A stretch of 63,384 nucleotides of DNA, filler included, from Stramenopiles sp. TOSAG23-6 (lineage: Eukaryota): assembly GCA_900128565.1 (NCBI GenBank). It is 12 parts of 12 records of this genome, joined end to end, with 100 filler letters (N's around TTAATTAATTAA, not from the genome) between each part and the next. Parts side by side here need not be neighbours in the genome. Positions count along the whole stretch, not along the records: positions 33,519 to 40,089 come from LT636676.1; positions 40,190 to 46,744 come from LT636678.1; positions 46,845 to 53,392 come from LT636679.1; 9 more parts are not named here. One strand, given 5' to 3'. Positions 18,042 through 62,269 of the stretch are shown one piece after another (the stretch's first letter is position 1; every line of letters starts with the position of its first letter). The translations under genes and the position numbers were made by a program. Below the pieces are notes generated by a model. The model was not told the origin of the DNA. It was given only the letters and a program-made list of their open reading frames with translations, and ran no database searches.

Positions 18042-19996
18042 TCACCTGAGCCCGAATCGTTTACTATTGTACATTTGTTGTTGGGCACCCCAAGCTGTTT
18101 TCCTACCTTTTGGTTTCTCTCTTTTACTGTAGAAACTTTTAGAGACTCTTGAGGATACTTCACTAGAGCTATTACGATGTTTGTTGCGGCGCTGTTGTCT
18201 CCGTGCAGCTGCTGATGCAAGTTTAGCTCTACGATCTGCAATAGCACTCGCTCTCCTTGCTGCAGCTTGCTTCGCTCGAGAAATATGGCTTATTGCCTCT
18301 TTCCTCACTGGTTTTTTATCACTACCTCTACTATTATGTCTCCTGGAACGAATAATTCCGATGTGGTTATGGTTACTTTTTTTTTGTCTTGTATTATAAT
18401 TATTGGCAACTTTTCTCCTGTTAAATGTTCTACTATTATTCGTATCTCTCACACTTGTACGAGTGTTCTTAGAAGATGTACGAGACTTTACCCGATTAGC
18501 CCTGATGCCACCGTCGGTTCGCTTTCTAGTTTTTATCTTCTCAATCTTTTCTACACGTTCTTCCAATTTTTCAATGACTTCATTATACAAAGTTTCCATT
18601 TCATTTATTTTGTCTCGTCCAACATAATCTTTTAAAACTCTATTTTTTATTTCAAGAATATCATTTTGTCTCATTTCTTCGGCTTCTTCCATTTTTTCCG
18701 CGATTCCGTTGCACTTGTTCAACTCCGTCTGGAGTTTCTTTATTTCTTCAAGTAAAGCACCCACTCGAGCATCTTTATCCTTTTCTTGTTCTAGTAATTG
18801 AAGTCTTGTTCTGGAAAATTCCTGTAAAGTTTCCAAGTGTTCTTGCTTCTCCTGTTTCAGTTCAAAGTCCAAGTGATTGTACTCAGCAATAGCATCCTCT
18901 GCGCGGGCATTAGCCTTGGCTTCATTCTCTTCTGCTTGGCGCCGAATTTGGTTTACTACAATATTGTGATTTTCTAATATAGATGATTTTTCATCACTCC
19001 AAATTTTCTTTACTTCACGCATTGTTTGATTTGACTTTCCAATTCCAGTCAATGAAAAAACTCCTCGACTATTATTTTTACCTTTTTCAAAGTTTGAAAC
19101 AATATCTTCCAATTTTTGGACCCGTTCTTCCGCCAGTTGAGTACGGTTTTGTTGATCAATTAATTTGGATTCAAGTGTTTCACTGCGCTCTTTCATTTCT
19201 GAAATAAATTGCTGGGCTTTGCTAAATTTAATCTCTATTTTCCGTGATACCGTTTCAGCTATATCGACTTTCTTCTGTAAACCTTCATATAAACTCTGGT
19301 AATCAACAGTGACATGCAGTTTTGGCAAAGATGCAATTTGTTTTGCTTTCTGACCAAATTCAAGCGTGCGCAATGTTTCACTAGCGTCATTAACATCAGG
19401 GCTAACCGTTATTACAAAGGCAGTATTGTTATTGCCTTGCAAAGTATCTTGTAATAATCGAGTTAACTTTGAATCTCTGAAAGGAATTTGCTCTCGATGC
19501 GTACTCGTAGTGTGCAAAATACAATTTTGTAGAGCTGAAATTGACAAATTTACAGACTTGAGCGGAGTAAAGTTAAAGTGTCCTCCTCTTTGTTTTGTCC
19601 CTTTTGGATTCTGTTCTGATCCAGCAAGATCCATAAAAGTAATTTTACTTGTATAAATTTTAGGCTTGATATTTTTTCTAGGATAAGAAGAGTTGCCTAT
19701 CTTTCTCTTTTTGATAGTGATAGTTAATATAGTGTGAAAAAATATTTCGAAAAAAAATCGTTAGGTACAAATTTTCGTACGAAACAAAATAAATTAAAAT
19801 TTTGAAATTGCAAACGTACATATAGTGTGACACCTTGCTTTTTCAAACTCCATTTCTGCACACATTATTTCATTATTTCGTTGCCCTTTGAGTAAACATT
19901 GAAAACATTCCGCTGTTGTTGATACAGGAAATTCTGAGACGCCTTCAACAAAAACTCCATTGGTCTTATTCTCTCGAATGCAAAGTGTCGAATCGC
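18042..19996 (-). CDS. Kinesin motor protein, 5' partial (exons 19996-19820, 19726-18042)
   Basis: LCIRE..GVFVEGV, DLAGSE, IPFRDSKLTRLLQDTLQGN, ETLRTLEFG, then coiled coil and basic tail. Confidence 0.92.
19727..19819 (-). other. GT-AT intron (93 nt)
   Basis: No AG inside; two in-frame stops; join gives RCHTILTITI (kinesin RSHxIxTI motif). Confidence 0.9.
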
Positions 19997-33100: not shown

Positions 33101-33374
33101 AAAACGAATCTGAACGGGTGCGATCTGCATTTTTAGAGTTCAAATTCTTCCATTCGGACGCCCGCCACGATGAAACAGAATCAGTAACAAATGTTTGTTT
33201 GCCAATCAGTCCTTCAGTATTGAAAAATTTTGCTTCAACTTCTGTAATTGCAGACGGATCAACAATACATATTTCCCCACTACTGGGAAAGTGACTCGCA
33301 GATTCAATCACCAATTTCTTGCCCCGAATGTGGGATGTGCAACCAGCATCCAGAACACCATCATTTTCAACCAT
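30096..33374 (-). CDS. Giant beta-rich protein, upstream part (probably the same gene as 26846-30142 with a frameshift)
   Basis: 1092-aa ORF sharing repeat types with the downstream ORF; the two overlap out of frame at 30096-30157. Confidence 0.7.
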   Translation of the reverse strand: MVENDGVLDAGCTSHIRGKKLVIESASHFPSSGEICIVDPSAITEVEAKFFNTEGLIGKQTFVTDSVSSWRASEWKNLNSKNADRTRSDSFFNAVDSFFCRIVDVNTIDDWSILDSHMKKQNENNNAMFCKMVQGINNFSAKFLIHVNNQESESIVYILNGGRGYKVGDFMEFRVDSYYKFRVEIRVKAIAGTNTPCKPGENGIICSYSGKSEDSLLNVNCNGVKLKSPTRMDKPIASAGWIVKYGLFKEDTTVCNDFKYESNGSVEVKQECFSAYSSKQVIQVNTSSTQDIPVCPKNNKNEIISVRESHFAGDSVFIQSKNSHGEIASISLKDSEEAPITSLYSAKDGEYIGIASSCSFPSGTCQGEGATFDISILNGILASCVIRDKGIGYKIGDHIKLLTTWSLFEFKAIPPQVVAMGDFQQDKDIIVEHVNAQSMTPEYFGKISEIGGSYDPGSCKEFLRVVVVDSFSSNVQNGDCLLPPSDKKILAGSYEVETLNNETAGFYHNHKPHGIKERTSFYLHDTEPSIPDYFVGRYITISETRTITNYDADRRVTVDFAFSFVPIGGTDPRSSTTYSITPGKNSPIEMPDIEGVVGIGGNTSSKFTLAPKETNEVGYFINRDITLSHMRYVVAYTKYRRVGVYPPLWGIPFPGTKFLTKYVIHPAVQLDSGICINEFYDELNLMKYDCEAMGYTWNETSPITDEYSGDVLILESGLGTNQRYKIDAYYGLNRIATIASSNFLGTKKVSKYTIKRSWESLIRPCMFLPSSLGCNSLEVCHWNDRVIQLSGLVRRVYQNDQIIAQYACLKNLEIIESVRTIGSCVEQGEWVKVAQGKVLSAIFKETTSVNVMVDSGSFRIGVGNIRLLDACSDGSDTDTEAECISSHCVFKGKITTTTHKRCVGGDSGYMNTNVVSLVDFVSTGRANSYIKVDTSILTEDKFNFISSRIKTDDRLYICTEMMDSKCTRHKLIGRAGTYSYSDSMTILHLLDYPGSIPKNSELYIKSAGSWHTKNTFYVNLDIQERKTLLSGPPKIKISGLSSSVNWNSVATINLNDDSKHVIKNLTPDYSGLTNSQCIVVAWYKSRGLILSR

Positions 33375-33571
33375 TTCTTTGTATGTATTTATATCTGTAT
33401 TATTTTGATTATTTTGATNNNNNNNNNNNNNNNNNNNNNNNNNNNNNNNNNNNNNNNNNNNNTTAATTAATTAANNNNNNNNNNNNNNNNNNNNNNNNNN
33501 NNNNNNNNNNNNNNNNNNAAAAAATAAATTCGATTTTTTTTTTACCGGAAAAAAAAAAAAATAAAACATAC

Positions 33572-34691
33572 ATACACATTGGACAAAATCACAAATAATT
33601 CTGATTCGGCTTGTTCTTCCATGACTTGAAGGTGTGTTTCTTCTTGTGAACCAGATAATAATCCAAGATGGGGTAAATGCTGAATATATAATTGTAGGAA
33701 ATATTGATGTACATAAAGTATTTGTTTGTTAGGTACAAACAAAATTGAAATTCAATTTTTTATTTACCGGAAAAAAAAAATCGAATTTTTTTTTCGTACG
33801 AAATTTTGTACCTAACGATTTTTTTAAAAAAAAATCGAATTTTTTTTTCGTACGAAATTTTGTACCTAACGATTTTTTTTTGAAATTTGAAATTCAATTG
33901 TAAAAACGTATATGTCTTAAAGTTTGTTCACGAGACTCTGGTGGAGGAAATCCCATACTATGCACAGAAAAAACATCTCCATCTGATGTTATTTCACCTT
34001 CGACTAATACTACACAACGTTCTGTAAAGAGCCCCCCATGAGGCACACAATTAGATAAATCTAACTTAATATGTGAGTTTAGATCTTCGAGGAAATATTG
34101 TCCTTCTTCCAACTGAGAAAGGAATCCAAGCATACACTTTGCACCTAAACTACTTTTTACTGATTCAATTGGTGTAAGCTGCACGAAATCACGTTTTGTT
34201 GATCCTATAGAAGAGGCACTAAATAAAGGATGTCGCATGACCCTCTGCCGTATTAACTCCAAACGATCACGACACATTCTAATTTTATCTTCTGCGGTAC
34301 CATGTAGGCGATTGCCATTTTCTGCACTCACCATAAAAAAATCCTTTCGGCTTTGGTTCCATCGAAGTTTCGGAAGTTGGAAAGCGTTAAATACTTGTAA
34401 AGACTCTTGAGCCCGATCTTCATCGTCTTTTGTGAGGTCTGCAACAACAGCGAGAACATTTTCGACAGTGACTAGATTTCCAGTGGCTGGATTGAGACGA
34501 TCAATACGCTCCTTCAACTTTTCTATAACAATTCGCAAAGCTCTTAATTTTCCATGCTCAGGCTCTGCACGCAACTGTGACTCTAGACCTAATGCAGCAG
34601 CCTTTGAAATTGTGAGACCTTCTAAACGAAATGCACGGCAAATTTTTCCGACAACTACTTTCTTTTGTCTTGCATCGTGTGCAGAAGGCAT
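33572..34691 (-). CDS. POLE2: DNA polymerase epsilon subunit 2, 3' partial (exons 34691-33912, 33685-33572)
   Basis: LGFLSQLEEGQYFLEDL, GLFTERCVVLVEG, MGFPPPE, then FVILSNVY. Confidence 0.9.
33686..33911 (-). other. Family intron with AT donor (ATACGT...TAT, 226 nt) carrying an antisense insertion
   Basis: CAT|ATACGTTTTT...TACCTAAC...CAATTATAT|ATT joins the two POLE2 frames. Confidence 0.75.
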
Positions 34692-34962
34692 CTTAAATGT
34701 ACGACTATCAAGTAATGATTATTTACTTTGGAAATAGATGGAAAGCTGTAGACAAAACAATCTTAATCTAATCTTATATTTTACTATTTTTTATGTACGT
34801 AGGTAACAAACATCAACCATCAAAACGAAAAACCACAATCAAAAAAATGACTTGAGCAAAAATGACACGTCAACTTTCTTTTTTTCAGTTGTGTGGTCAA
34901 AAGTTTCAAACTCCAAAAACACGACAACTTGTAGAAAAAAATCGATTCTTCGATTCTAAATA

Positions 34963-35800
34963 ATGGCTGAACGCACACGCAAACGAACAAAACATGAAGA
35001 AGAGGTCATGCAAAAAGCGTTAAGCGGGTTAGGTCCTGCTATTGTTATCACCAGCTATCTATGTCTGGGAGATAGACTCTCAGGGAGAGCTGTATCAAAC
35101 GATCAGCACAGACCTTGGATGGTCGGTGTCGGTTGGGGTGAAGTGACGTGTACTGAGACAGTGAAGCACGGCGACTTAAATTTTTTACAATGATTAAGAA
35201 GTCAAAATCCACCTCGTCCATGGGATAGATGGACGTGTGCTTATGCAGCTGAAAATGGTCATTTGGAAGTATTGAAATGGGCAAGAAGTCAAAATCCACC
35301 TTGTCCATGGGATAGATGGATGTACATGTCAATTGGCAGCTTTGAATGGTCACTTGGAAATATTAAAATGGGTAAGAAGTCAAAATCCACCTTGTCCATG
35401 GGATGGATGTACATGTAGTTGGGCGGCTTTTAATGGTCACTTGGAAATATTAAAATGGTTGAGAAGTCAAAATCCACCTTGTCCATGGGATGGATGTACA
35501 TGTCAATTGGCAGCTTTGAATGGTCACTTGGAAATATTAAAATGGGTAAGAAGTCAAAATCCACCTTGTCCATGGGATAGAGCTGAAAATGGTGACTTGG
35601 GAGTATTATGTCCATATAATGGAGATACGTGTTTTTTGGCAGCTAAGAATGGTCACTTGGAAGTATTGAAATGGTTAAGAAGTCAAAATCCACCTTGTCC
35701 ATGGGATGACAGTAGGTGTCATGCAGCAGCTCGTGAAAGTGGGCACTTTCATGTTTTAGAATGGATTGATCAGCTATTCCCCAACATGTTTAGATTTTAG
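34963..35800 (+). pseudogene. Ankyrin-like repeat (AAxNGHLExLKWxRSQNPPCPWD) pseudogene
   Basis: TGA at a Trp position (35191-35193) and a 4-nt insertion (GATAGATGG vs GATGG) near 35311-35320; 81-nt tandem units. Confidence 0.8.
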
Positions 35801-36020
35801 AATGTATTGAAATGAATATCCTGTTGACATCATCATCTACAAAACAAATGTAAAAAAAAAATAATATTAAAATATTTAGACAGTTTTTATTGATTTGTTC
35901 TTTATTACATATACATGTATGTTGATCACATCATCCAAGGTAAACTCTATTTTTTTGTAAAGTACAAAATTTCGTACAAAAAAAATAAATTCGATATACG
36001 TAGTACGTACCCCTAAACGT

Positions 36021-37139
36021 TTACTGTTCTTCAAAAGGTGCAGCAGCCATCGTCCTAGCTACTTCAGTTCCTACAACCTTTGCAAGTTGAGTACGTCTTG
36101 TCGTTTCATTATGAATAATTTGTGATGTCACGAAATCAAAGGCTTTGGTAATATCGTCCGTAAAAAATAATCGTTTGCGATCAGAAGGTGATACAGTGCC
36201 TCTTTCTACAAGTAAATCCCAATTAATTGCTGATTTCCAATATTTTTCTCCAAATAATACAACAGGAATGGATGAAGTCTTTCCACATTGCATTAAGGTC
36301 ATGGCTTCAAATAATTCATCACAAGTACCTAATCCTCCAGGCATCACTACAATAGCACGTGCTGGCATAGTCATCCAAAATTTACGTGTAAAAAAATAAT
36401 GAAATTCAAAAGCTAACTCAGGATGAACGTACGGATTACGAAGTCTATATTCCCCAACCCTAGTCAAATTTTCTTGTACGCCGAAAGGCTTTGGCATTGT
36501 CACTGACATTCCGATACTTTTTGCACCAGGAACTAAAGATGCACCATGATTAGCAGCTGCCATAAACCCTGGTCCACCTCCTGTACATATATAATGCTTG
36601 TCAATCGCAAAGTTACCACCTCTATTTGAACCCCAGAATGCCAAACGATGAGCTAAATCTTTGGCTTTTTCATAGTACGAACATAACCAAGACGTCTTTT
36701 GGAGACGTTTTATTTGTTTTTCTAGATTATCTTTTGTCGCTGTAGTCGTTGTAGAAGATGCTAATTCTGATTCTAGTCTTTTTAACGTACTTGTGTGTTC
36801 GTCTTTAGGAAGAGCGGTACTACTACCCATGAACAGAATAGTGTTGAACACTGCATGCTTCTTTAACTGGTCTTTTGGATACTGTATGAGAATAATATAT
36901 TATTACTATAATGAAACATGAGCGAAATGAAGTATACATGATATATAAATGTATGTGGAAACAATTTTAAATGGGAAACGAACCTGGTATTCACAAAGAA
37001 CTCGTATGGGACGCGCAGCTGGCGATAATAGAAATTCTTCATTGTCGTACGCTTTAGTAGTTGGTACATAATCACGTGAACTAAAGAACTCCGCAGTAGG
37101 TGGTTCGTCACCACTAGAAAATGCTTTTGAACTCGACAT
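36021..37139 (-). CDS. LOG family / lysine-decarboxylase-like nucleotide phosphoribohydrolase (exons 37139-36984, 36881-36021)
   Basis: ICTGGGPGFMAAAN, FEFHYFFTRKFWM, PGGLGTCDELFE. Confidence 0.88.
36882..36983 (-). other. Canonical GT-AG intron (102 nt)
   Basis: CAG|GTTCGT...CATACAG|TAT; in-frame join CEYQYPKDQL; lacks TACCTAAC. Confidence 0.85.
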
Positions 37140-37387
37140 TTTTACTTGTCCGATGATTCTTTTAAATCTATATTGAAAACTTTTTCTTTTCTACGAAAAA
37201 AATTATTGTTTTTTTTTGACTTCGTTCGTTCGCAAATTTTTCTTCTCCGTTTCTTCGAATCGACGAAGAATCAAAAAAGGTACCGGGTACCCAAAAAAAA
37301 ATAACGGTTTCCGGTTACTATTTTTTTACACTACAAATCATATTGCATTCTTTATTACTTTATAGTTCCAAAACATACAACAAGAAC

Positions 37388-38403
37388 ATGAGTGCAGCTC
37401 TTAAAGCGAGACTCGCAAAATTGAAGGCTGCAAAGGCAGCGTCAATGCTCGCCAAAAATGAAGACAGTCCATCTCCTCGAAAAGATACAGCTGAAGGAAT
37501 GAATACAACGTCAATGGGGTCAATGGGTAATATGAGAGTGAGCACAGACTCAACATTGGGTACACAACTAGATAGTCCAGTAAACGTGGGATCTCCCGTA
37601 AATCGCATGCGTATGTCACGGAAGAGTTCACTTACATCACAGAGAAAGTCTGAAGGATTTATTTTAAGCCAATCGGACGCAGATAAAACTCCAGAAGTTC
37701 ATATAATGGGATCCATTGTTGGTGGACTCGGTTTTGAGTCTGGCGTATCCGTTCGTTGGTCTCTAGTCACAGGTCGTGGATGGAAACATCTAGAGGGTAA
37801 GCTAAGTGGTCAAACACAATTTGATTATCCTGAAGGACGTTATGATGATAATACGCAAATGTGTGTCTGGGCTCATCCAATTGATGCTCATTATACTACG
37901 CGAACTTTACAAGGATGGCCTCGTCTGTTAGTTCATGTTTGGCAACTTGATCAACATGGTTGTTGTTCTTTGACAGGTTATGGCCAGTGTAGTATCCCAT
38001 GTAGAGCAGGACATCATAAAGTGGAATGTCATACTTGGAGACCAGCAGGTAGTACAGGAGAAGAATTGTTAAATTATTTTATAGGCGGTACGTTTCCATC
38101 ATTATTACTATTTTCAATCATTCAACTATAATTATTATTTTAGTTACGTAGTCGTGTAATTTTATGTTGTAACAAAACAATACGCAAAATAGAGTACTGA
38201 GCATATACCTAACAAACTATATTGAACTCTTTGACATATTCTCTTACAATAAATGAACCCCCCGGTTAAAAACGGATGAAATTTTATTTAAGAAAGCCTG
38301 GGAGGATCGATGTAGAATCAACACTGTTGGTTCTGGAAAGATGATGGTTGAAGTATCAGTATTACTCAAACACTTTGGAGATGCAGATATTGATATATTA
38401 TAA
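37388..38403 (+). CDS. B9D2: B9 domain protein 2, ciliary transition zone (exons 37388-38087, 38255-38403)
   Basis: EVHIMGSIVGG, GQTQFDYP, WAHPIDAHY, GWPRL, TWRP; C-terminal FIGGTPRL...RCRINTVGSG..VSVLLKHF recovered after splicing. Confidence 0.88.
38088..38254 (+). other. Divergent GT-AT intron (167 nt)
   Basis: G|GTACGT...TACCTAAC...ACATATTCTCTTACAATAAAT|GA. Confidence 0.85.
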
Positions 38404-38728
38404 CTAGGTTATTGTTGCATTATTAATTGGTTATTATTAGGTTATTTTTAGGTTATTATTAGGTTATTATTAGGGGTTATTAGTAGCTTGTATAATACAA
38501 TTTGTTGTAGTGAAATAGGTTTTTGTACTGTTACACACGCACAAGTGCGGTGTTTATATACAAGAATCCATCTATGAGATCTATGTTGATTGTATACTGG
38601 TCTAAAATACGAATAAAATTTACTATTAAAATCATAATTTTAATGGCATAAAGCACAGTGTATCAAGGAGTTGTTCATTTATAATTGTTAAGCATTGTTT
38701 TGGTACACAATGTACACGAAGTAAAAAG

Positions 38729-39232
38729 TTAAACTGTTGATTCAAGATTCTGACGAATATCTTTAGCAACTTTTTTAACCAAACTGGTTCTTTCTTTATC
38801 TGTCTTTCCAAGTGAATCAAGTTCATCTCTCACTGGATTCTGTCCTACAAAACCTTTCCGCAAGTGTTTCGTCATTCTAATTCCTTTTTTCTTTTGGAGG
38901 TGCGCTTGCCACTCTTCTGCCGATACTATATTACACCACTGCCTCTTTTTTATCTTATCCTTTGTAAAATGAACATGACCCTCATGTAATGCAAATAGAG
39001 TGTGATCCTTTCCCATGCCCATGCCTTTTCCAGGATGAAATTTCGTCCCTCTCTGGCGGACAATGATATTTCCTGGCTTGACCCAATGACCGCCAAATCT
39101 CTTGACGCCTAGATATTTTGGAAGCGAAGATCTACCATTATTTGTTGACCCACCTGCTTTTTTCGTCGCAAATCGAACCAATCGTGGGCATATAAACATT
39201 GGAGATTGTAGACGAAGTATTGAACATGACAT
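38729..39232 (-). CDS. MRPL27: Mitochondrial ribosomal protein bL27
   Basis: Presequence, then [47 protein letters not shown]. Confidence 0.93.
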
Positions 39233-39464
39233 GTTGAAGGACTATTGCTGCTGTTGTATATCAATGATTACGTACTACTAGGTACTATGTATACTACGTA
39301 ATTGCTCAAGAGAGAGAGAGAAAATGAGCTTGTTTGTTTGTGAACACGTGCNANCAAAAAAAAANCACAGATTTNGTGTTTTTNACTGTTTTTTATTACC
39401 AAAAAAAACATTTTTTTTGTCTTCAAAAAATTAAATGATTCAATCATTAAACCCTAACCCTAAA

Positions 39465-40019
39465 TTAAACAGCCGGATTCCTATTGATGTAAGGCAATCG
39501 ACTTGCTTCAGCTTTAGGCCCTATTCTATCAATTTCAATATTTGTTACAATTTTAGGTGGTTGATAAGCTGGGATAGAGTCACTTTCTTGAATGGATTCT
39601 AAATTCAATTTCTTACGATTTTCTGTAGTTAATTTTGACTTTGATTCCATTTTTTTTAAGTGTTTAATTCGATTACGTAATGCATTTATACTCTTTGCTG
39701 AATGAATGGATTTTAGAGATTTCGATTCAGACATTAAACTTTGTATAACACTGACATATATTGTGAAAAATATTTTTTTTTGGAAAATTTGTTAGGTACG
39801 AAATTTCGTATGAAAAATTTTAAATTAAAAAAAAAAAATAAAACATATATCATCATCAAAACCATCGTTATATTTCTCTTCCAAATTAGGGTTAGGGTTA
39901 TCTTCGCCTAATTGTTCCCAATTTCGAATTATATCTTTACTTAGCTTCACACGGCTACTAGTATTTGATCTTCTTTCGGCTATTTTCTGAGTAATGGCTC
40001 GTTCTAGAGCATCTACCAT
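39465..40019 (-). CDS. Hypothetical protein, last two exons (40019-39849, 39755-39465)
   Basis: Two ORFs joined by intron 39756-39848; preceded by a truncated family intron. Confidence 0.6.
39756..39848 (-). other. Family intron with AT donor (ATATGT...TAT, 93 nt)
   Basis: GAT|ATATGTTTT...TACCTAAC...CACAATATAT|GTC; in-frame stop inside. Confidence 0.75.
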
Positions 40020-40237
40020 ATATATTGTATAAAAATATTTTTTTTTTTTTTTTTTTTTTTAGTAAAAAAAATCGTTAGGTAAAAATTTTNNNNNNNNNNN
40101 NNNNNNNNNNNNNNNNNNNNNNNNNNNNNNNNNTTAATTAATTAANNNNNNNNNNNNNNNNNNNNNNNNNNNNNNNNNNNNNNNNNNNNAATTTCTTACG
40201 AAAAAAATTAAATTTGAAATTAATTGTGAAAACGTAC

Positions 40238-41902
40238 ATATCCCTCACTACTATCGCCACCAACATACTGGTTCGGATTGATACGTCGAAGCGTTGCAGT
40301 ACAAACACCATGTACCGGGGATCCATTTTCTTTATACTGTATCCAACTTCCTTTAAATATGTCACCACCAGAATATTCCACTTCTTTTAATTTTATTGTT
40401 CTACGATTTTTTTCAGTATTTTTAGATTTTTCAAATGATGATGGAAAGCAGGCCAATTCAAATCTATCGGGGGCGAATAAGTTCATACGATTCGTATTAC
40501 TCAATGAGCAAATACGTTTTCCAGAAATTAAAATGTTTGTTTTATCATCCGTGTTTTTTGTTACACCAGTTATAGTTCTTGAATGTTTTGCTACGCCCGT
40601 TATCGTTCCTGAAATAGTTTGATTAAAATCAAGATGTTGTCTTTCAATGAAATTCTCTGTATTTGTATTTGATATCTGGGACGCATTTGAAAAAAAACAA
40701 ATATCCAATTCTCCAGGACCACTTGTTAAATGTAAACGAACATCTGCACGATTTAAATTTGCCGTGTTTGTCTCTGTAGAAGAACTTTTACTTGAACTAT
40801 TTTGTGTTTTTTTACTATATATATTACGATTTTCAATAGATTTGGCCCTGAGTATTTCCCATTCGCCCTCAATCCTATCAGCTTGAAAAGAAACTAGACG
40901 TACAGCAGATGATGCATCGCTTGTACCATTATTACAACTAAGGGCAATGTAATTAGAAAATACTTGTACTACACATGTACCATCCGCAACTTGTCCAGGT
41001 TTTAGTAGAAACGGAGCGGGACAACTTTTTGCTGATGAAGCATTTGACAGTGAAGAAGAATTAGGACTATTTTGAATTTGAACACTATTGCTTCTACTTC
41101 GAGCTCTACTACGGCTACGTTTTCGGACAGATGTTTGGTTCGTGATTGATTCGGCTTCTTGAGGCGGTAACAGTTGGAGAGTTGCAGACCCAAGAATATC
41201 ACTTGGGCAATGAGGATTAGCACTAGCTTTGGAGTTTCCACCGTTGATTGCTGTATGGAGACAAAGCCATACTGGAGATGAGGTATTTTTTTTATTATTA
41301 TTGACAACATTTTCATTATTAGGCCCCCCCATGACGACTACACGAACCCGCCAGAGTCCATTAGGTAGTTGGAGACGCCATCGAAGAGCTTTATCGCTTG
41401 AGAGATTTCGTCCTGGTAGTAAAGTGACTGTATTTTCAAGTATTAACTCAGTATCATTCGTTCCATTAGTAGTCGACGTGAGAGGGGCTTCACTACCACG
41501 TGTAGATGGGTATCTGCGATCAAAACTCATTGAATAGGGTTTGGAACTATCTGTGGTATGATCAAACTCTTTATCAAATTCGTGACCATCAAATGAGTGT
41601 GTCCAACCGAAACGAACAGGTACAGAACAATCGTATCGCTGAGAAGTATTATCTAAAGTAGCCCATGGAGAAGTATCGTATGATTGGGGATCTACAGGTA
41701 ATTCTATTGAAGGGGAAGAATGAAACGATTTCCCCGAGTCGTTTAAATACTTTCGCCCGTTCAGACCTTGAAGGTCAGTGTCCGACTCTAAATCTGTAGT
41801 AAAGTTTATGTATACACTAGAAGTATTACTCATTACACGGCGGACGGCAGCATCGGATAACTCTGGGAGTGCTACACCACAAGTACTTTGAGATATACCC
41901 AT
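40238..41902 (-). CDS. Hypothetical protein, first exon (possible N-myristoylation MGISQS)
   Basis: 555-codon open frame ending at family donor GTACGT (40237). Confidence 0.65.
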
Positions 41903-42139
41903 TATAAAAAGAGAAAAATCGCAAAGACGGGATTACCGTCTATTCATCAAAATACCTGATAGATAGTAAGTGATTTTATATAGGATTCAAAAATCTCACG
42001 CATTGGATTAGTAGCTAAAGTTGTGGAAATACAAATACCCTTTTCAATTTCAAAGCTTTTTCAAAGAAGAACGATTCAAGAACTTTCTCCCTTTTTTATT
42101 ATAACAGGTTTGTTCCACAAAATTTTTTTCTCCAAAAAA

Positions 42140-42212
42140 AGCAACTTGACGGAATCGAACCGTCGACCTACACATTACAAGTGTGTCGCTCTACCAACTG
42201 AGCTAAAGCTTT
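42140..42212 (-). tRNA. tRNA-Thr(UGU) with mismatched first two acceptor pairs
   Basis: TAGCTCAGTTGGTAGAGC D-arm; ACACA-CTTGTAA-TGTGT anticodon arm; GACGG-TTCGATT-CCGTC T-arm; followed by a T run. Confidence 0.75.
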
Positions 42213-42639
42213 TTTTTTCTGATGCGACAACAACACCATACACAAAAAACTGACATTGACACTAAATATTTTTGTTTTACCATTTTTGTAATTATAACTA
42301 GTTTTTTTTTTGCTAATCGGATGAACCTTTTACATTTTTATTTTTTAGTTATGTAGTCTATAGAGATGCTTTTATATCGTTTGATAATATTATATTTCTG
42401 TAATATTATGATTAATATGTTTATCAAGGCTTGCGGCTTGATATTGATTTGATTGCTTCGAAAAAAAAACTAAAACAAATAGGGTTAGGGCAAAAAACGC
42501 GAACGTTGCTCCTACGTATATGTTCGATTTCAAATCAAAAGCTTTTTTTTGTCTGGCTTTCATAAAAAGAAGTCTTTTTAGGTAATAAATATTTCTCATC
42601 TCATCCCAAGATTGCCTGTTATCAACGCATTGGATTACA

Positions 42640-45600
42640 ATGGGACAATCTCTTGGTAAAAATGTCTTGGTTTTTCAATCAGGAAAATTTCACCATCCCG
42701 GTGGAATTTTTCCTTTTGTTGAAGGAAAAGATTGGGACGAAGCAAAGGCGAAGCACTCAGCTTTCATTCGCGCGGTACAAAAAAATCTTTTAAATACAAC
42801 TTTCTTATCCAGCATATTAAAGGGCGATGCTGCATTTGTTACATCTGCGATTGAATATTATCAAAATTCATCTGATGAGTACACATCGGAACATTCTGTA
42901 AACAGTGCACACCTCAGCGCAAAATTAGATGCGGAGCATCTTCTCGAAGGTCTTTCTAGTTCACGCCCTCCGAGTTCTCCATTTGTGTCTACCTTACAAC
43001 GTCGATTAATGGCTCTCTTGGCACTAAATCCGCTTATAAAAGCAGAGAGAAAATCTGTGGGCCAACGATACGTGAAGCGTACTTTAGGTGCACCTGCAGC
43101 TACAGTTACTACAACAGAAATCTGTCTATCCACTATGTCTGCACTCGTACAACATTTAAGCTTTGAAAAATCACAGCAATATACTTTATCACACACAATC
43201 AATGTTCTTGAAGATGCGTTGTCCCAATACAAACCATTGTCTTTATTTAAAGATTGGTGTATGTTTTACTTTTTTTCAATTTCGAATTTATTTTTTGTAC
43301 GAAGTTTTGTACCTAACAAATTTAAGTTTTTTTTTTTTGAAATATTTTTCCAACGTACATCACCGCCTCCAGCAGCTCCTGAAACCTCACTTTGTTTGGA
43401 TCCAAAATGGGTTCGCTCAACCGTACAAGACTCAAATTTCCCAGCAACACGCGCTATAGATGGCCGAGGTCGAGATTCTTACTGGAAGACATGTATGTTT
43501 TATTTTTTTTTTCAACAAAAAAAATCGATTTTTTTTTCATACGAAATTTTGTACCTAACAAATTTTTTAAGATTTTTTTTTGAAATATTTTTCCAAAATC
43601 CATATTCATCTCCAGCTAATGCAGAGTTCTATATAACTCTAGAAAAGCCTAAAAAAATTGCATCTCTAGTGATTTTTTGGGCACAGGATGACTATGGCAG
43701 TCTTTGGGCACCCGAAAGTTGGAGTATCAGCTCTTCTTCGGATGGAAAAACTTGGAAAAAAGTATCAACTTTTTCAAACAAACAAACTATTTCCAGAATT
43801 AAAGCTTCACAACAACGTCTTCCTTTGAAAGGATTGTTCACTCGGTACATTCGTATTTCATTCCATGGATTTCATTCTTTCAACTCAGAAGGGGCGCGAT
43901 ACTATGGAATTTGGAGAATGTCGGTAAATGTTGCAAAACCAGGTATACTACTGAATAATAGTAAAAGTGTAATCGAAGACCTTCAAAAGTGGTTACTGCG
44001 TGCTTCCAAGCAGTCTAAATTAAGATCAGGCGCTTTATCGTGCATGTTTTCTTTATATATTGCTTCGGGTTCTCTGCAATCTGCTCTCATGTTAGTTTTG
44101 GCTCTTCTACGAGGCGATCCGTTCATAAAAAAGGGGGATATCTATGAAAATAACCCTCTCGCTACCCGCAAAGGTTCAAAGAAATTAAAGTGTAAAGATA
44201 CCAATACCAAACCCAACGCAGGAGGTAAAGTTATCATCTCAGCATCTACTAGTCCAAAATCAAATCCATTGACGAAGACTTTGATCTGTAAAACAGAAGC
44301 ATACTTCAAAGATGTTTTTCAGAGGGAACGTAATGCTAAGAATAAATATGGGTATCTTGGTAAGAATAAGTCTATAGCAACCGCCTGTTTTGATAGAAAA
44401 TGTATGACTCGTTCATGTCTTGAGTTATCAAATTCGAATACTCGAGTGCACTCCAAGGAAGGATGTCATGATTCATATGTTTTGCTCAATATGGGTTTTG
44501 AAACTGGTCGGTGGGCATGGGAATTTGAATTGGCGACTCAAATTAGTTTTGGTGACGAATGTGTCGCATTAGGTATTGCGCGAAAGCCTGTTCATTCGGC
44601 ATCGTACCAAAGTAGTAAAGAATTTTGGATGTATCGTTGTTACAACGGGGAACTGTATGAGCATGGTCTGAAGAAATCACGGCGATGTGATCCTATTCAT
44701 GCGGGCGATACGGTTCGTTGTTGTCTAGATATGTATGCTGGGACACTCTCGTATAAAATAAAAGGTGGGAAATCGCAAGGCGTCGTCTTTGAAGGAATTA
44801 CGGGTAAAGTATGGCCTGCAGTGAGCATATACAGTTCTCAACAAGGAGTTACTTTTATTGCTTTAGAACAATGCGATGCAAGTTATACATCTTCTTGTAT
44901 GACGGAGCTGTCAGCATTGGACCCACATGCGCTTCCAGGTTGTGGTGAAATTTCAAGTACAAATAATCAAGAACAAGTCACATCGATCGGGAATTCTCCA
45001 AAACGTGAATCATTGCCATTAGATTTTCCATCTCGATCGAGAACTAGTAATATTCGCAATCACCAAAGAAATAATCAGGAGTTTTGGTTTGGTCATTTAC
45101 GTGAAGGTCTCCGTCATGGCGAAGCTGTTTTCTTTGACCCTGACATGGAGTGTTTTTGGTATGGGACATGGATTGATGGTAGACAACATGGCTTAAGTAT
45201 ACGAAAAAAAATAAAGAAAGGTAAAACGCCGGACGTACAAATAGCTGCTTTTGCAAATTTTACCACCTGGCCGAATTTAGATGCAATTTCGGATGATGAT
45301 ATAGAAAATAGTATCATCTGCTTATTCAATTATGGTCGTAATATTCGACGAGCCACGAGCAGAGATATAGAAAGCCAAATCGATTTTATGTCACCAAAGT
45401 GGCGACGTTTCTGTGGCTTTTCTGAGAATATATATAGTGGTATGAAGTACAATACTGATATTACTGGCCAACTATTTGAAAATGTCTCAGGTATAGATGA
45501 ATTTAATATCTCTTTTTCAGATGAATTTAATGTTTCTCACGAGGAACAATATCTTGCTAGTCGAATATTACTTTCACTTGCGCGTCTTTCCAGTGCAAAC

Positions 45601-46687
45601 TCGATTGGCTCGGACAAGATCAATAATCATAGCAATATGATTGGTATTAACTTGGATGAAGAATATTGTTTTGAGCCGAGTCTTTCGACCTTTAAAATCT
45701 TGTTACCTCTTTTAACAATGATTGTTCGACGTTTGGATTGTTTGAATAGTTATATAGCCGTTGCAACCGCGAGTAATCAAGAAATAAATGAAAAACAAGA
45801 AGAAGAAAACGGCAATCAAAATGAAAAGACAAAATTCAAAGTAGAAATCAAACGTATTGAGAATCTAATACGTTCGACACTCCGACTATTAGAAAGTAAC
45901 TTTGATCGCATTGTTGCTTTAAATATTGATCCAGTCGAGGTTGATTTACAATGCAATAATGATTACAACGACAAAAAAGATGTGGACAAAAATGTATGTT
46001 TTATTTTTTTCAAATTCGATTTTTTTTCGTACGAAATTGTGTACCTAACGATATTTTTTTGAAATATTTTTCCAAAATACATCCGTCGTCCAACCCAAAT
46101 GAAGTAATGGAAAAATTCCACAATATATTAGAACAATTACTTGTAAAGCCATATCCACATATTTTACAATATAGAGCAGCAAAAGTAATTTCATCTGGTT
46201 TACTTTTCTTATATCCAACGCCAAATCAACGAGCTGAGTTGTTACATTCTTTGATTGTACAACAAGCATCTACCCCCTTTAAGCCTGTAAGTGCTCGTTA
46301 TGTCCTTCTTGTCCAATTACTTCGTCGATTCAGCAATACATCAGGAATAGTTACTCTCCTTCCCATAAATAGCGACGATGTGAATACGCATAGACCAAAA
46401 AATGTAAAAAAACTGTCTTTTCCAATTATAAAACTTTTATCGCAAGTATTTGAGGTTGTCGTATCAGAAAGCTTGAAAGAAATCAATGATAATATTGAGT
46501 ACTTTCAAAATCAAAAAGATGGTAATACAAAAAATAGAAATGATTCTACAAGTGAGTACGATAAAAACGGTAACTTTAACAGAACCATTGGAATAAATTG
46601 CACTGATAACTCAAGTAATAACCTATGGTCGACCACACTAGTAAGTAAGGCATTTACTTCCGAAATGCTAGATTATGAAGAGTCCGT
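42640..46687 (+). CDS. Giant protein with F5/8-type C (discoidin), SPRY and MORN-like segments, likely E3-ligase-type (exons 42640-43258, 43361-43492, 43604-45993, 46083-46687; 3' partial)
   Basis: RAIDG..SYW, SSDGKTW, TRYIRI; GRWAWEF..VALGIA..GDTVRCCLDMYAGTLSY..WPAVS; WYGTWIDGRQHG. Confidence 0.72.
43259..43360 (+). other. GT-AT intron (102 nt, stopless, read through by the ORF track)
   Basis: T|GTATGT...TACCTAAC...CGTACAT|CA. Confidence 0.8.
43493..43603 (+). other. GT-AT intron (111 nt, stopless, read through by the ORF track)
   Basis: ACAT|GTATGT...AATCCAT|AT; removal gives a compact discoidin segment SYWKTYSSPANAEF. Confidence 0.8.
45994..46082 (+). other. GT-AT intron (89 nt)
   Basis: No AG inside; the next AG (46104) is followed by an in-frame TAA; the AT end joins both ORFs. 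Confidence 0.88.
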
Positions 46688-46844
46688 GCATGTTTTATTT
46701 TTTTTCAAATTCGATTTTTTTTTCGTACGAAATTTTGTACCTAANNNNNNNNNNNNNNNNNNNNNNNNNNNNNNNNNNNNNNNNNNNNTTAATTAATTAA
46801 NNNNNNNNNNNNNNNNNNNNNNNNNNNNNNNNNNNNNNNNNNNN

Positions 46845-47818
46845 TGTGTATGATGATGTATGTTTCAGATTTCAATTTTTTTTTTTTTTTTTTTTTTTTA
46901 TACGAAATTTTTTACCTAACCAAAAAAAAAATGTTTTTTTTTTTTTGAAATATTTTCCCAAAATACATTCTTGCCACTGTTTTATATTATTATATTAATT
47001 TAAAAGGTGCTAAAAAAGATTATGGAGATACTGTTAGAGGTATCCAATTAGCTGCAGCAAAGAAAGCTTTATTAGCCCTTAGAAATAAAGATATTAATGA
47101 TGATCGACCAGAACATTCAAAAAACTGGCGGCCACAATTACTTGTTTTAGTGAAATTAGTAGAAAAAAAAACACCTAACCCTAACCCTAACATTGATTTG
47201 AATACAGTTAATTTTTCAGAGTATTCCAAAAATCAAAATGGTAATGAAAATGTAAAAAATAAAAGTGTTTTTACAGTGAGTAGACCAGCATTATTAGATG
47301 TCGCACAAATGATGAAAAAAGGACGAGGATTAACGATGTACGTTTTCAAAAATTAATTTTTTTTAATTTTTTTTAATTTTTTTAATTTTTTTTTTTTTAC
47401 TATGAAAATTTTGTACCTAACAAATATTTGTACTACACTTTTTTTTGACAATACATGATTCGTTCTTTTATACATGGTAGTGTTGTTACTCCTCATGATA
47501 ATGAACATAGACGTCCTGCGGCTATTTCATCATTAAATACTGCAGTAACAAAAGCAAAGATTAATGGATTTGTTGGTGTTACTGTACGTTTTATTTTTTT
47601 TTCAATTTTTTTTTCGTACGTAATTTCGTACCTAACAAATTTTACAAAACACAAAATTTTAATTTTTTTTTCAATTTTTTTTTCGTACGCAATTTCGTAC
47701 CTAACAAATTTTACAAAACACAAAATTTCATAATACATGTGGCAAGAGAATTTAAAACTGGAATGGATTGTATTCTTCAAGAAGTCGGCTTAGCAGGACT
47801 TACACCAAATGCTATAAT
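46845..47818 (+). CDS. SLC12 cation-chloride cotransporter fragment (exons 46845-46857, 46969-47337, 47457-47583, 47739-47818)
   Basis: KGAKKDYGDTVRG, HSKNWRPQLLVL, KKGRGLTM, KINGFVGVTVAREFKTGMDCILQEVGLAGLTPNAI. Confidence 0.88.
46858..46968 (+). other. GT-AT intron (111 nt)
   Basis: GAT|GTATGT...TACCTAAC...AATACAT|TC; little upstream context to test the frame. Confidence 0.75.
47338..47456 (+). other. GT-AT intron (119 nt)
   Basis: No AG inside; join GLTMIRSFIHG. Confidence 0.85.
47584..47738 (+). other. GT-AT intron (155 nt) with tandemly duplicated branch module
   Basis: ACT|GTACGT...AATACAT|GTG; the next AG would give a stop. Confidence 0.88.
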
Positions 47819-47919
47819 GTATGTTTTAGTTTTTTTTTCAAATTCGATTTTTTTTCGTACGAAATTTCGTACCTAATGATTTTTTTAGATTTTTTTTTAA
47901 ATATTTTTCCAAAATACAT
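47819..47919 (+). other. GT-AT intron (101 nt) joining two apparently different genes
   Basis: Full consensus (branch motif TACCTAAT); in frame. Confidence 0.75.
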
Positions 47920-48983
47920 GATAGTCAAAGAATGGCAAAAAGACATAGAGTTTACACCATCACCTGATGATACTGTATTGGGAATGTTAATGGCTCTTTT
48001 ATTTTCAACACCATCACCAGAGTCCATACAAAGACTCGAAACAATGCATGTTCACTTTCACAATATACCTAAATGGTGGCGAAATTCTTTACCCCGAAAC
48101 CAACCCATTGTGGGATTGCATTTACGACTTTTTGATACACAATCAACAAGTCCAAAATATGTACCTTTTTTATATTATACATTTCAAATTTATTTATTTA
48201 TGGTAGTACCAAATTGTATACCAAATATTTTTTTTTTTTTAACAAATTTCGATTGTCTCATACTTTTTTGTTGTACCTAATGATTTTTTTACGAAAAAAA
48301 ATAATATTTTACACAATTCAAGGTGGAGACAAACTAGGCCATTGGAAACCTGAAGCACGTGACTGGAACCTAGATGTTACTTCATTTATTGATTGTGCAG
48401 TTGAGTTATTAGATGAAGTGTATAAAGTTGACCGTCGACGGCCAATTATTCATCTTGCCACAGATAGCATTCAGTATCAGAGTGTAATCCAACGAAAGTT
48501 ACACGGACGAGGAGACGTTATTTGGTTGAGCAATCAAATAGTTCATACAACGGCAGAGAGCAAAATAAGTCCTGATAATTTAAATTCTGCAATATTAGAT
48601 GCTGCTTTAGATTGGTGGTTACTATCGGAAGTCGATCATATTCTGATAACTGGGGACTCCACGTATTTCCTAACTCTAACCCTAAAGCATTTTTTACTTG
48701 TGATACTTTCATTATTTTTTCATGAGAGACATATTTGTTGTATATACGAAACCACAGGTACTCCAGAACAGCATTACATCGAGGGTACTCCCGAGATGAA
48801 TCCTCCAGAACAAAAATCGCTTATCGTTGGGTCCAATGTTGCTGGTGGGAGGGTGATACAATTTGGGATAAAGATACAGTAACAGTAGATTTGCCGGGAA
48901 AGAAAAAAGAGCCTTTGTCGACTAGAAATTCTTGTAGGAAGCAATCAGTTCCAAGTAACCTCATGAATTATGCAGGGCCATAA
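47920..48983 (+). CDS. Fucosyltransferase-like C-terminal part (exons 47920-48160, 48322-48662, 48758-48983)
   Basis: IVGLHLR, IHLATD, ALDWWLLSEVDHILITGDSTYSRTA correspond to motifs I-III of alpha-2/alpha-6/O-fucosyltransferases. Confidence 0.7.
48161..48321 (+). other. Family intron apparently ending in AA (161 nt)
   Basis: TAT|GTACCT...TACCTAAT...CACAATTCAA|GGT; the adjacent AG (48322) gives a stop after four codons. Confidence 0.6.
48663..48757 (+). other. Canonical GT-AG intron (95 nt)
   Basis: AC|GTATTT...CCACAG|G; join gives STYSRTA. Confidence 0.8.
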
Positions 48984-49057
48984 AAGATAAAAAAAATTAC
49001 AAATGAAAAGTACACTCTCTTGATATTTTATATTCAAAGATTCGTTTTATGTTATCA

Positions 49058-49294
49058 TCACTGAATCGTGATTTCACCGGTTTCGTTATAAGTTTGACAG
49101 GTAAAGGTCTCTGGGCCTCCTATGACGAACGACATCGGACTCCTTGTGCTTTTGCAACGGGTTCCTGCTGGGCACAATTCTACTATATTTTCGCCTTTGG
49201 GAGGGTTACAAATGTCACCAAGGTTTAATATACTAAACGCCTGGTTAATAAAGGCGCACAAAAGAAGAAAAACATGTAATATTACCTTTCTCAT
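49058..49294 (-). CDS. Small secreted Cys-rich protein
   Basis: Signal peptide MRKVILHVFLLLCAFINQAFS; four Cys in the mature part. Confidence 0.65.
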   Translation of the reverse strand: MRKVILHVFLLLCAFINQAFSILNLGDICNPPKGENIVELCPAGTRCKSTRSPMSFVIGGPETFTCQTYNETGEITIQ

Positions 49295-49542
49295 GATAAT
49301 TTACAATGACCAGTACCTTGTACCACTAAACCCGAACGTTTACAAAGCAAGAGCTTTCTACAAAATGAACCTTCGTCGGAACTTTTTCATTTTTTTTTGA
49401 TGTCTGTCGATGATGTGTAACTGTTTTCTTGCTTAACCTCTCTCCACATATATATCGTTGTTATTTGTCTGTGATACAAAAACCTTGCCTATAGTATATA
49501 TATTGACAATGGTTCATTTTCAAAAAGTTTGGTGCATCTAAA

Positions 49543-52671: not shown

Positions 52672-52714
52672 GAAAATATAATAGTAACTGTACCATTTAT
52701 AAATAAAATTAAAA

Positions 52715-60579: not shown

Positions 60580-61329
60580 AATATTTTTGTTGTACTCTAT
60601 ATAATACTATATGATAAGTATAAATTGATACATTTCTTTGTAGTAAAGTATATGATGAAATATATGCTGTTGTTCTTTGTAGTAAAATATATAATATATA
60701 ATATATGATGTCAGTATTTTTTCTATTTTATTTTTATATATATATATATACAGTATTATCTTGAAAATATCATTTCTGTTTCATGTTTGTACAATCAAGC
60801 ATAAAATGTCTTCTCTCTCTACATAATACTCAATACTAAATACTAAATACTCAATTATTTTCTCTTTCTCTTTCTTTTCTTCTTTTCTTCTTTTCTTCTT
60901 TTTTTGTTTTTTTAAATACAATATTGTTGGTATTGTATTATTTTTCAAAATGTTTTTTTTTCTTTTTCAAATTTTTTTTTGAAAGATTGAAATTCAAATT
61001 GTGTTAAATATCTCTCAAAACATCTTTTTTATTTCTTTGTTTTTTTCATTTTCGTTTTCGTGTAAAAGCATCATTTGATCTGGTACCGGGTTTGAATTGT
61101 TTTGACCTTTGTAACTGACTCTCTTTTTCATCCAGTGAATTTTCTAGTTCTACGNNNNNNNNNNNNNNNNNNNNNNNNNNNNNNNNNNNNNNNNNNNNTT
61201 AATTAATTAANNNNNNNNNNNNNNNNNNNNNNNNNNNNNNNNNNNNNNNNNNNNTATCCTATATAGGTTTTTCATTATTAATTTTTTTTTTTTTGTAATT
61301 TTTTTTTCATACGAAATTTTGTTCCTAAC

Positions 61330-61365
<36 letters not shown>

Positions 61366-61384
61366 AATATTTTTTTTACAATAT

Positions 61385-62269
61385 TTGATGTCAACACGAA
61401 ATATTGTATGACTGGATCATATGACAGAACATTGAAAATATGGGACACGAAATCTTGTAAATGTATATTAACAATTCCAGGGTCAAAATGCGAATTGGGA
61501 ATGTCTTATATACATGTTTGTTTTCATCATAAATTTAAAATTTATTTTTTTTTTTTCATACGAAATTTTGTACCTAACGATTTTTTTTTTTTAAATTTAT
61601 ATTTTCATCATTTTAAATTTTTTTTTTTTTTGGTAGAAAATTTTGTACCTAACAAAAAAATGTTTTGACATATTTTCACAAAAATATACGGGTGCAATTA
61701 CAGCATGTACATTCTCATCTTGTACTACATGTATGTTTTCATCATGAATTTTAAATTTATTTGTGTTTGTATGAAAATTAACAAATTTTTTTTTTTTTTT
61801 TGTATGAAAATTTCATACCTAATAAATTTTTTTTTTTTTTTTTACGAAATTTCATACCTAAATATTTTGTTTTTGAAATATTTATTTCCTACACATATGC
61901 TTTAAGTGGATCAAATGACATGACTGTAAAATTATGGCATTTAATTGGCCTCTCCTCAAATCCTAAAAATGATTTGAATAATTCAGATTTAGGGTTAGGG
62001 TTAAATAATTTAGGGTTAGGGTTGAATAATTTAGGGTTAGGGTTGAATAATTTAGGGTTAGGGTTAGACTTTACTTGTTTAGCAACTTTTTCAGGACATA
62101 CTGCACCGATTTCGTGTTGTATATTTATTCGTAATTCTGAAATAGATACAAGAATAGCTACTTCAAGTTGGGATTCTACTATAAAATTATGGAGTATTAC
62201 AAATATAAGTACAAAAAATTTTGAAAAAAATTNTGAAAAAAATTTTGAAAAAAATTNTGAAAAAAATTT
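61385..62269 (+). CDS. WD40-repeat protein fragment (exons 61385-61515, 61688-61730, 61897-62269)
   Basis: TGSYDRTLKIWD; spliced HTGAITACTFSSCTTYALSGSNDMTVKLW; GHTAPISCC..TSSWDSTIKLW. Family introns at 61263-61384 (ATAGGT donor), 61516-61687 and 61731-61896. Confidence 0.85.
61989..62067 (+). repeat. 21-bp tandem repeat built from TTAGGG (encodes LGLGLNN)
   Basis: TTAGGGTTAGGGTTRAATAAT, about 3.7 copies. Confidence 0.9.

Follow-up and report, generated by a model that had tools for sequence, protein, structure and literature searches.

An introner-like family of introns with GT..AT borders in genomic DNA of a marine stramenopile

What handles introns that do not end in AG? The AG that closes an intron is among the most constant signals in eukaryotic gene expression, and it is read twice, early by U2AF and again in the catalytic centre. 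We examined a 63,384-base stretch of DNA from Stramenopiles sp. TOSAG23-6 (assembly GCA_900128565.1), hereafter the window, in which a first-pass annotation had noticed introns with relaxed terminal dinucleotides, among them AT and GC donors and an apparent AA acceptor. It had proposed that an unusual splicing system handles these introns, either a remodelled minor spliceosome with co-evolved small nuclear RNAs (snRNAs) or a variant major spliceosome. The window consists of 12 contigs ordered by length and joined by linkers (N44-TTAATTAATTAA-N44); its composition is ~65% A+T, its coding regions are dense and its exons long. The picture goes beyond relaxed termini: an introner-like family, and apparently the whole intron complement, has GT..AT borders.

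The survey of introns across the window viewed each CCTAAC site in its orientation, scanned for donor-like sites and mapped open reading frames (ORFs) and introns. With duplicates removed, ~59 kilobases (kb) yielded 32 distinct 5' ends and 23 complete introns, and all the intervening sequence was of a single kind, with the family consensus cat/GTAYGTTTT at the 5' border (a slash marks the splice site throughout). The intron opened with GT in 28 of the 32 cases, with AT in three and with GC in one; A stood at +3 in 31/32, G at +5 in 30/32, and T at each of +6, +7 and +8 in 32/32. Every donor was GTAYGT or a one-base variant of it (32/32), which is the pattern of a U2-type donor (GTRNGT), the fit to U1 and U6 being judged by general consensus and not by the host's own snRNAs. 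On the exon side of the cut, T preceded the intron in 30/32 and A stood at -2, giving an exon that ends in AT, in 27/32. The branch box was TGTACCTAAC, rarely ending ...AAT or reading TTCCTAAC; its CCTAA was present in all 23 complete introns and lay 33-49 nucleotides (nt) from the 3' end in the 20 that were measured. Seventeen of the complete introns could be aligned, the other six having long or composite bodies, and in all 17 TACCTAA was unvarying and was followed by a T-rich stretch, as in a U2-type branch site with its YTNAY or CTAAC core and pyrimidine tract. The branch 9-mer GTACCTAAC occurred 32 times in the window versus 0.25 expected. Most introns were 89-119 nt long, at a density of ~1 per 2 kb, and the aligned copies gave the repeat consensus ATGTATGTTTT...TTTTTTTCGTACGAAATTTTGTACCTAAC...TTTTGAAATATTTTTCCAAAATACAT. 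Three introns (5897-5999, 38088-38254 and 48161-48321) had largely diverged bodies in which these three signals persist. No intron ending in AG was found in the ORF and intron map of the window.

The ordinary acceptor of the family is AT, a point absent from the first-pass annotation. With the boundaries that we chose, 22 of the 23 complete introns end in AT, one in AA and none in AG, a count that leans on the family alignment because reading frame fixes a boundary only modulo 3. Position -3 is C in 18 introns, T in four and A in one, giving YAT where other introns have YAG and a general 3' form of ...A(C/T)AT/. The last A and T are unvarying in the 17-row alignment, compared with 16/17 for the G at +1. 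Frame-consistent GT..AT boundaries were found for 19/23, namely 14 of 18 in a first test and five more (5999, 47819, 61731, 38088 and 47584). The intron 61516-61687 ends ...AAATAT/ if exon B is taken as the WD40 strand H-T-G-A-I-T-A-C-T-F, a reading of our own made without a tool, and 46858-46968, which has merely 13 nt of upstream exon, stands outside the frame check.

RNA and protein profiles bear on individual junctions (Table 1). Record 9 of metatranscriptome run X7 joins 12 nt of upstream exon to position 43601 onward, with one CAT kept and the 111 nt of 43493-43603 gone; DNA run X3 contains 43493-43603 and has no such exon-exon joint. Two further RNA runs, X8 and X9, gave no junction on contig 40190-46744, the parts that they leave uncovered being uninformative. 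Removal of 19727-19819 carries the Pfam Kinesin profile from position 205 at the end of exon 1, through a junction codon at 206, to 207 at the start of exon 2. Removal of 38088-38254 does the same for the B9-C2 profile, with exon 1 reaching 131, the junction codon at 132 and exon 2 covering 133-166 (the profile end, a small piece with E 0.16). The AT end is not merely a trait of young copies, since 38088-38254 has a largely unique body.

A shift of the whole intron by two nt, to AT..AC, is conceivable because most exons end in AT and the introns end in AT as well. The GT..AT register was open in 7/7 tested introns. The AT..AC register (shift -2) met stop codons at 38088 and 43259, and the TG..CA register (shift -1) met one at 38088; for 38088-38254, registers -1, -2 and -3 all yield stops. 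A rule by which the first AT after the branch box serves as 3' site was also rejected, several ATs preceding the used one in the aligned sequences. AG dinucleotides lie between branch and 3' end in 6944-7046 and 43493-43603 and are unused.

Five variant donors had been singled out on first pass: ATACGT at 33911 (-), ATATGT at 39848 (-), ATAGGT at 61263 (+), GCATGT at 46688 and GTACCT at 48161. We found all of them in place, and they belong to the family, each being one base off the 5' consensus. The branch motif said to be common to the complete ones is there too, as TGTACCTAAC in 33684-33911 and 39756-39848 (in the latter at 39791-39799), TGTACCTAAT in the 48161 intron and TGTTCCTAAC at 61322. 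Single departures from consensus comprise G+1 to A (33911, 39848, 61263) and T+2 to C (46688); in others the G at +5 is replaced by C or A (48161, 57068) or the A at +3 by T (61516). Non-GT donors amount to 4/32 (12.5%); in other eukaryotes they make up about 1-2%. The flanking frames of the variant introns are intact and in phase wherever they can be checked. An in-frame stop lies inside 39756-39848, which must therefore be removed. The donor at 61263 is 8 nt from the contig start, leaving 8 nt of upstream exon, and has an identical copy at 62378 in a duplicate contig. A check of the variant bases in independent DNA bore out the GC at 46688-46689: record 8 of seawater run X3 matches 46057-46689 over 633 nt with 0 differences, and other family copies in X3 show GT there (a loose-end consensus). 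This read comparison covered contig 40190-46744.

The 3' ends proposed earlier for two of these introns held in part. CAA/ at 48321 is among the frame-consistent ends, as one of three (ACA/, ATT/ and CAA/). For the intron in the gene taken for POLE2, the frame-consistent end is 33684 rather than 33686, the difference being a repeated AT; the left ORF has 269 codons, and the frame also admits ends that lie 3 or 6 nt deeper in. For ORF 33912-34718 the name POLE2 could not be confirmed: the one indication from Pfam was weak, a polymerase OB-fold at E 0.07. In the two A+1 introns whose 3' end is known, position -3 is T and not C; two G+1 introns have T there too. The association has Fisher p ~0.02 when computed by hand on very small numbers; it may reflect paired ends, or simply a Y at -3.

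Most of the introns are copies of one introner-like repeat of ~90-110 nt with inverted ends. The 17 aligned copies lie in kinesin, SPRY/F5-8C, EF-hand/SAM and other unrelated genes, and the nine long contigs break off inside a family copy at 14 of their 18 ends; the repeat therefore breaks the assembly. In run X3, 6734 contig pieces fall on 40190-46744, piled on four intron stretches, and 1590 of them fit two places; this depth is not taken as copy number or as intron depletion, contig depth being unable to rank gene parts. The 5' AT/GTAT is the reverse complement of the 3' ATACAT/, followed by TTT against AAA, so that complementarity extends over 6 nt (+3), with 87.6% of cells paired over 9 positions. 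The direct repeat at the two borders is merely AT or CAT and is missing in 5/32 5' flanks; it is 10 nt long in 19727-19819. There, the last 10 nt of the intron (CACACTATAT) equal the last 10 nt of the upstream kinesin exon, other copies sharing merely AT or CAT, and its two departures from the family consensus are the bases that match the exon. The family core contains the palindrome TTTCGTACGAAA. Four longer introns (47584-47738, 61516-61687, 61731-61896 and 33684-33911) have two branch boxes each, which come from tandem or nested copies of the family core.

Fragments of the family also occur in antisense. Two lie inside intron 33684-33911, and another of ~40 nt with a branch box, at ~8545-8590 (+), is in frame inside a minus-strand exon, where it is read ...KLLGTKFTMKKNIENG.... 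Because such fragments exist, the family probably spread at the DNA level, with insertion in either orientation, and it may have supplied most or all introns of the genome. No transposase was seen in the window. Searches further afield gave 0 matches to a 20-mer of the family in metagenome contigs, and 56 loci for a gapped branch-plus-tail pattern, of which 0/56 had family features; a 17-mer hit 6 viral and 31 prokaryote-genome loci, with donor or tail in 0/37.

We favour, at about an even chance of being right, a single major-type spliceosome whose 3' site has shifted from AG to AU and which acts on this introner-like family. The hexamer GTAYGT is of U1/U6 type and the branch core CTAAC of U2 type, and GC is the commonest U2-type donor variant. 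The family introns would be removed by the organism's single U1/U2/U6-dependent spliceosome, with the 3' site moved from YAG to YAU and recognition depending chiefly on the long 5' site and on the branch box. Because recognition would rest on these two signals, the terminal bases would be less critical, which would explain why copies with A+1 (3/32), C+2 (1/32) and C or A at +5 sit in intact frames. More speculatively, a terminal U that pairs with either G or A at +1 would make the change from G+1 to A tolerable.

A number of observations weigh against a major spliceosome with an AU 3' site, or against the boundaries on which that reading stands. The intron 12827-12920 (+) has consensus ends, yet its flanking frames call for 93 nt to be taken out and not 94, from either an assembly indel or a cut one base off, and 48161-48321 has no AT end. 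The choice among the boundaries that frame leaves open was made by homology to confirmed junctions, which makes the counts partly circular, and the RNA support is one junction with a 12-nt anchor. An RNA joint was seen only at 43493-43603, and the five variant introns may be dead copies or ones that splice poorly. The inference as to the type of spliceosome draws on intron signals alone, and Rfam found no snRNA in the window, either at gathering threshold or with E<=1. Compared with the U2-type TACTAAC, the branch box carries an additional C, its 8-mer matches the U12 box TCCTTAAC at 6/8 positions, and the conserved TTT at +7 to +9 is reminiscent of U12-type donors. Finally, Blastocystis, a heterotrophic stramenopile, has hundreds of AT-AC-rich minor introns, according to the accessible part of one study (PMC10639083).

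A likeness to U12-type introns, on which the first-pass annotation had rightly remarked, does exist: the 5' site is long and fixed as far as +9, the branch 8-mer agrees at 6/8 positions and the ends are non-AG. It would suit a derived minor spliceosome that had expanded to all or most introns, its U11/U6atac and U12 having co-evolved to GTAYGTTTT and TGTACCTAAC. We think this unlikely, even though both signals are long and almost unvarying and, by consensus, GTATGTTTT differs from GTATCCTTT at only 2/9 positions and TACCTAAC from TCCTTAAC at 2/8. The available text on minor introns reports non-AG ends and G/A exchange at +1, with AT-AA and AT-AT as the commonest non-canonical termini, and describes stramenopiles such as Blastocystis as retaining a minor system with many AT-AC introns (PMC10639083); in Physarum, so far as the source could be consulted, the minor system is greatly expanded (bioRxiv 10.1101/2020.10.12.336362). 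In the window, however, TCC occupies +4 to +6 in 0/32 donors, the nearest single case being GTACCTTTT at 48161. U12-type introns have the donor RTATCCTT(T) and a branch box about 10-26 nt from the 3' end, without a polypyrimidine tract, whereas here a T-rich tract follows the branch and the distance is 33-49 nt, beyond the U12 norm as had been noted on first pass. Moreover, the family is the sole class seen in ~59 kb, where U12-type introns would form a rare second one beside major introns; GT..AT is the rule, U12-type termini being AT-AC or GT-AG (rarely AT-AA, AT-AT and others), and two introns exclude an AT..AC register; and GTAYGT and CTAAC better suit unchanged U1/U6/U2. What stands of the original proposal is that something unusual handles these introns, because their ordinary 3' end is AT and not AG; its minor-spliceosome option fails on TCC, branch distance and rarity.

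Somewhat less probable again is that the variant termini are assembly or amplification errors, or unspliced mutated copies in decaying genes or low-fitness alleles, an explanation that is compatible with the others. The assembly is poor (single Ns, the possible chimera 20152-26745, a duplicated contig and a frameshift near 30096-30157), four of the five variants are known from this assembly alone, RNA supports 0/5, and the 48161 intron is off consensus at three signals together. On the other hand, GC at 46688, the one checkable variant, is identical in an independent metagenome, the frames flanking 33911, 39848 and 48161 are intact and in phase, and three independent G-to-A changes at one position among 32 sites would be unlikely as random error. 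Removal without a spliceosome seems very improbable; the inverted ends would pair and so juxtapose the exons, a mechanism proposed for Amoebophrya introner elements and for the nonconventional introns of euglenozoans. Such a mechanism assigns no function to the unvarying GTAYGT and TACCTAAC, and 38088-38254 has no end pairing, yet the B9 profile fits on its removal. The complementarity of the ends (87.6% over 9 positions) does appear as pairing in the minimum-energy fold, a short direct repeat (AT or CAT) overlaps the borders, and the T at the paired position -3 in both A+1 introns with a known 3' end would suit it, at the small numbers given above. The pairing is nevertheless no better than in shuffles, 56 of 500 of which reach the same level, and its covariation is matched by 55-56 of 500; RNAalifold gave no conserved intron structure, and the single-sequence fold had a z of -0.94, again no better than shuffles.

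Returning to a major-type spliceosome with an AU 3' site, we tentatively consider, at somewhat under an even chance, a fuller account in which the standard 3' site of an abundant, uncultured marine stramenopile lineage changed from AG to AU in step with an intron-generating repeat; the repeat would have supplied the 5' site, the branch box and the 3' end and would now form most introns, the spliceosome having been remodelled to match. This would involve a U2 branch-binding stretch with an extra G, a U2AF small subunit that is changed or lost, and a catalytic core in which U is tolerated opposite either G or A at +1. If true, a free-living, globally present protist that ends its ordinary introns in AT while its donor and branch box stay conventional would offer a natural experiment in 3' site choice and would show the mutual adaptation of a spliceosome and a mobile intron family; published gene models of the organism based on GT-AG would also be systematically wrong. 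Gene finders restricted to GT-AG will mis-model such genomes. The public model identical to the VPS11 ORF at 53512-55668 (+) (P0001) has five in-frame gaps of 13-25 residues inside an uninterrupted ORF, which are probably false GT-AG introns set by a gene finder; for the SPRY/F5-8C gene, no match was found among public gene models. Low gene counts and apparent pseudogenes deserve re-examination, because the repeat breaks assemblies and GT-AG finders mis-model the genes.

Over all of its aligned portions, the same VPS11 ORF matches at 100% identity a public protein whose label, that of a EukProt entry, begins GSMAST32, and because of this identity the source organism is, judged from that protein, a MAST-3-type marine stramenopile or a very near relative. 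A diplonemid origin, considered on account of odd introns reported in single-cell genomes, was ruled out by the stramenopile label of the identical protein. Contig 40190-46744 is present in two runs of one organism and in several seawater metagenomes and metatranscriptomes. The genes of the window include kinesin, VPS11, a B9 ciliary protein, a U-box/Sel1 protein and fibronectin-III/ankyrin proteins. The sole RNA gene detected in the window is a transfer RNA gene, tRNA-Thr (TGT), at 42139-42213 (-), between two divergently placed genes.

Some features of the contigs concern the assembly itself. Contig 20152-26745 is an inverted duplication about ~23450, with the same ORFs on both strands (697 and 182 amino acids, each twice), and looks like an amplification or assembly chimera. 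Contig 61255-62269 equals 62370-63384 in all matches listed, single Ns included, one sequence having been filed twice. At 30096-30157 (-) two ORFs, both of ~1100 codons, share 62 nt that they read in different frames, without an intron signal between them, which is probably a one-base assembly error or a frameshift. A telomere-like 11-mer, CCCTAACCCTA, occurs 16 times in the window versus 0.00 expected. Within ORFs it always reads Pro-Asn-Pro-Asn, and in the WD40 gene a tandem array of it codes for (NNLGLGL)n; three sites are intergenic, two of these upstream of ORFs.

Table 1. Positions of introns, contigs and repeat sites, counted along the window (slash, splice site).
Feature	Position	Strand	Length (nt)	Sequence features
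Reference family intron, spliced in RNA	43493..43603	+	111	GTATGT...ATCCAT/
Kinesin motor domain intron	19727..19819	-	93	GTACGT...CTATAT/
B9 (ciliary) gene intron	38088..38254	+	167	cg/GTACGTTTC...ATATACCTAAC...CAATAAAT/ga; body largely unique
Family intron without preceding AT	43259..43360	+	102	ggt/GTATGT...GTACAT/
Typical compact family copy, first row of alignment	45994..46082	+	89	
Intron in DNA-polymerase B-subunit-like gene	33684..33911	-	228	donor ATACGTTTT (G+1 to A); branch TGTACCTAAC at 33728-33736; end ...ACAATTATATAT/
Family intron	39756..39848	-	93	donor ATATGTTTT (G+1 to A); branch TCGTACCTAAC; end ...CACAATATAT/
5' part of family intron, rest cut off by contig end	46688..46744	+		donor GCATGTTTT (T+2 to C)
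Diverged intron	48161..48321	+		donor GTACCTTTT (G+5 to C); branch TGTACCTAAT; 3' region ...TACACAATTCAA/gg; the only one of 23 without AT end
WD40 gene intron	61263..61385	+		donor ATAGGTTTT; branch TGTTCCTAAC; 3' end ACAATAT/ or ACAATATTT/
Contigs, first four	1-6626; 6727-13347; 13448-20051; 20152-26745			
Contigs, next five	26846-33418; 33519-40089; 40190-46744; 46845-53392; 53493-60039			
Contigs, last three	60140-61154; 61255-62269; 62370-63384			
Telomere-like 11-mer sites	9306-9316; 10631-10641; 23285-23295 (= 23602-23612); 39452-39462; 39887-39897			CCCTAACCCTA
Telomere-like 11-mer sites	42480-42490; 47179-47189; 61990-62063 (= 63105-63178)			CCCTAACCCTA

In the paper library searched, non-canonical introns or introners in MAST-3 were the subject of no paper, and no report of an AT-ending family like this one came up. 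In the accessible text of the 2018 paper on uncultured stramenopile genomes (PMC5778133) the word intron occurs in two passages, both of them methods, and the part available of a 2026 preprint on protist single-cell genomes gives introns only as a share of the genome. No described close case joins strict yeast-like signals with a fixed AT end. Transposon-derived intron families are reported from Micromonas, Aureococcus and many other organisms. Introners, as the consulted sections of a large survey present them, resemble the family described here in being many near-identical short introns in unrelated genes and positions, whose termini are inverted and whose borders carry a short direct repeat (PMC12130899). 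Described introners use canonical or known minor termini, whereas the present family ends in AT, and here the signals are common to every intron seen, diverged copies included. The survey, in the same sections, accepted 3' ends of AG or AC only, starting from annotated introns (PMC12130899), and would for that reason miss an AT-ending family. The introner elements of Amoebophrya are likewise repeat introns of a marine protist, with inverted repeats between their ends, direct repeats of 3-5 nt at the borders and non-GT-AG termini (PMC7789003, in the portion available). That portion reports no clear terminal signature and no strong branch motif, whereas GT..AT is nearly unvarying here and the signals are yeast-like.

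For the non-GT/AG introns of tunicates a transposon origin has been proposed. In Fritillaria and its relatives such introns are spliced by a modified major spliceosome, and tunicate genomes with 95% non-GT/AG introns are described in the accessible part of one paper (PMC13326754). Both ends are diverse in tunicates and branch signals weak, whereas here the last base alone differs, YAG having become YAT, and the other signals are strict. U12-type introns, which on the partial text available occur in some stramenopiles, resemble the family in the length and conservation of their 5' site and branch box, in allowing either G or A at +1 and in tolerating ends other than AG (PMC10639083). The family differs from them in having no TCC, a branch box 33-49 nt from the end and a T-rich tract, and in being the sole class. 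The nonconventional introns of euglenozoans (Euglena and hemistasiid diplonemids) have non-canonical borders and pairing ends, as far as the excerpts consulted go (PMC6221363, PMC12621601). The same excerpts give them no conserved borders or U1 complementarity, and G+C-rich ends; the introns of the window, in contrast, have a perfect U1/U6-type donor and a branch box, their borders are nearly unvarying and their pairing is not above controls. The splice signals of intron-poor yeasts and protists (GTATGT, TACTAAC) have the same donor hexamer and the same CTAAC core, both nearly unvarying; those genomes have few introns with YAG ends, whereas the stramenopile has an extra branch C, YAT ends and an intron every ~2 kb.

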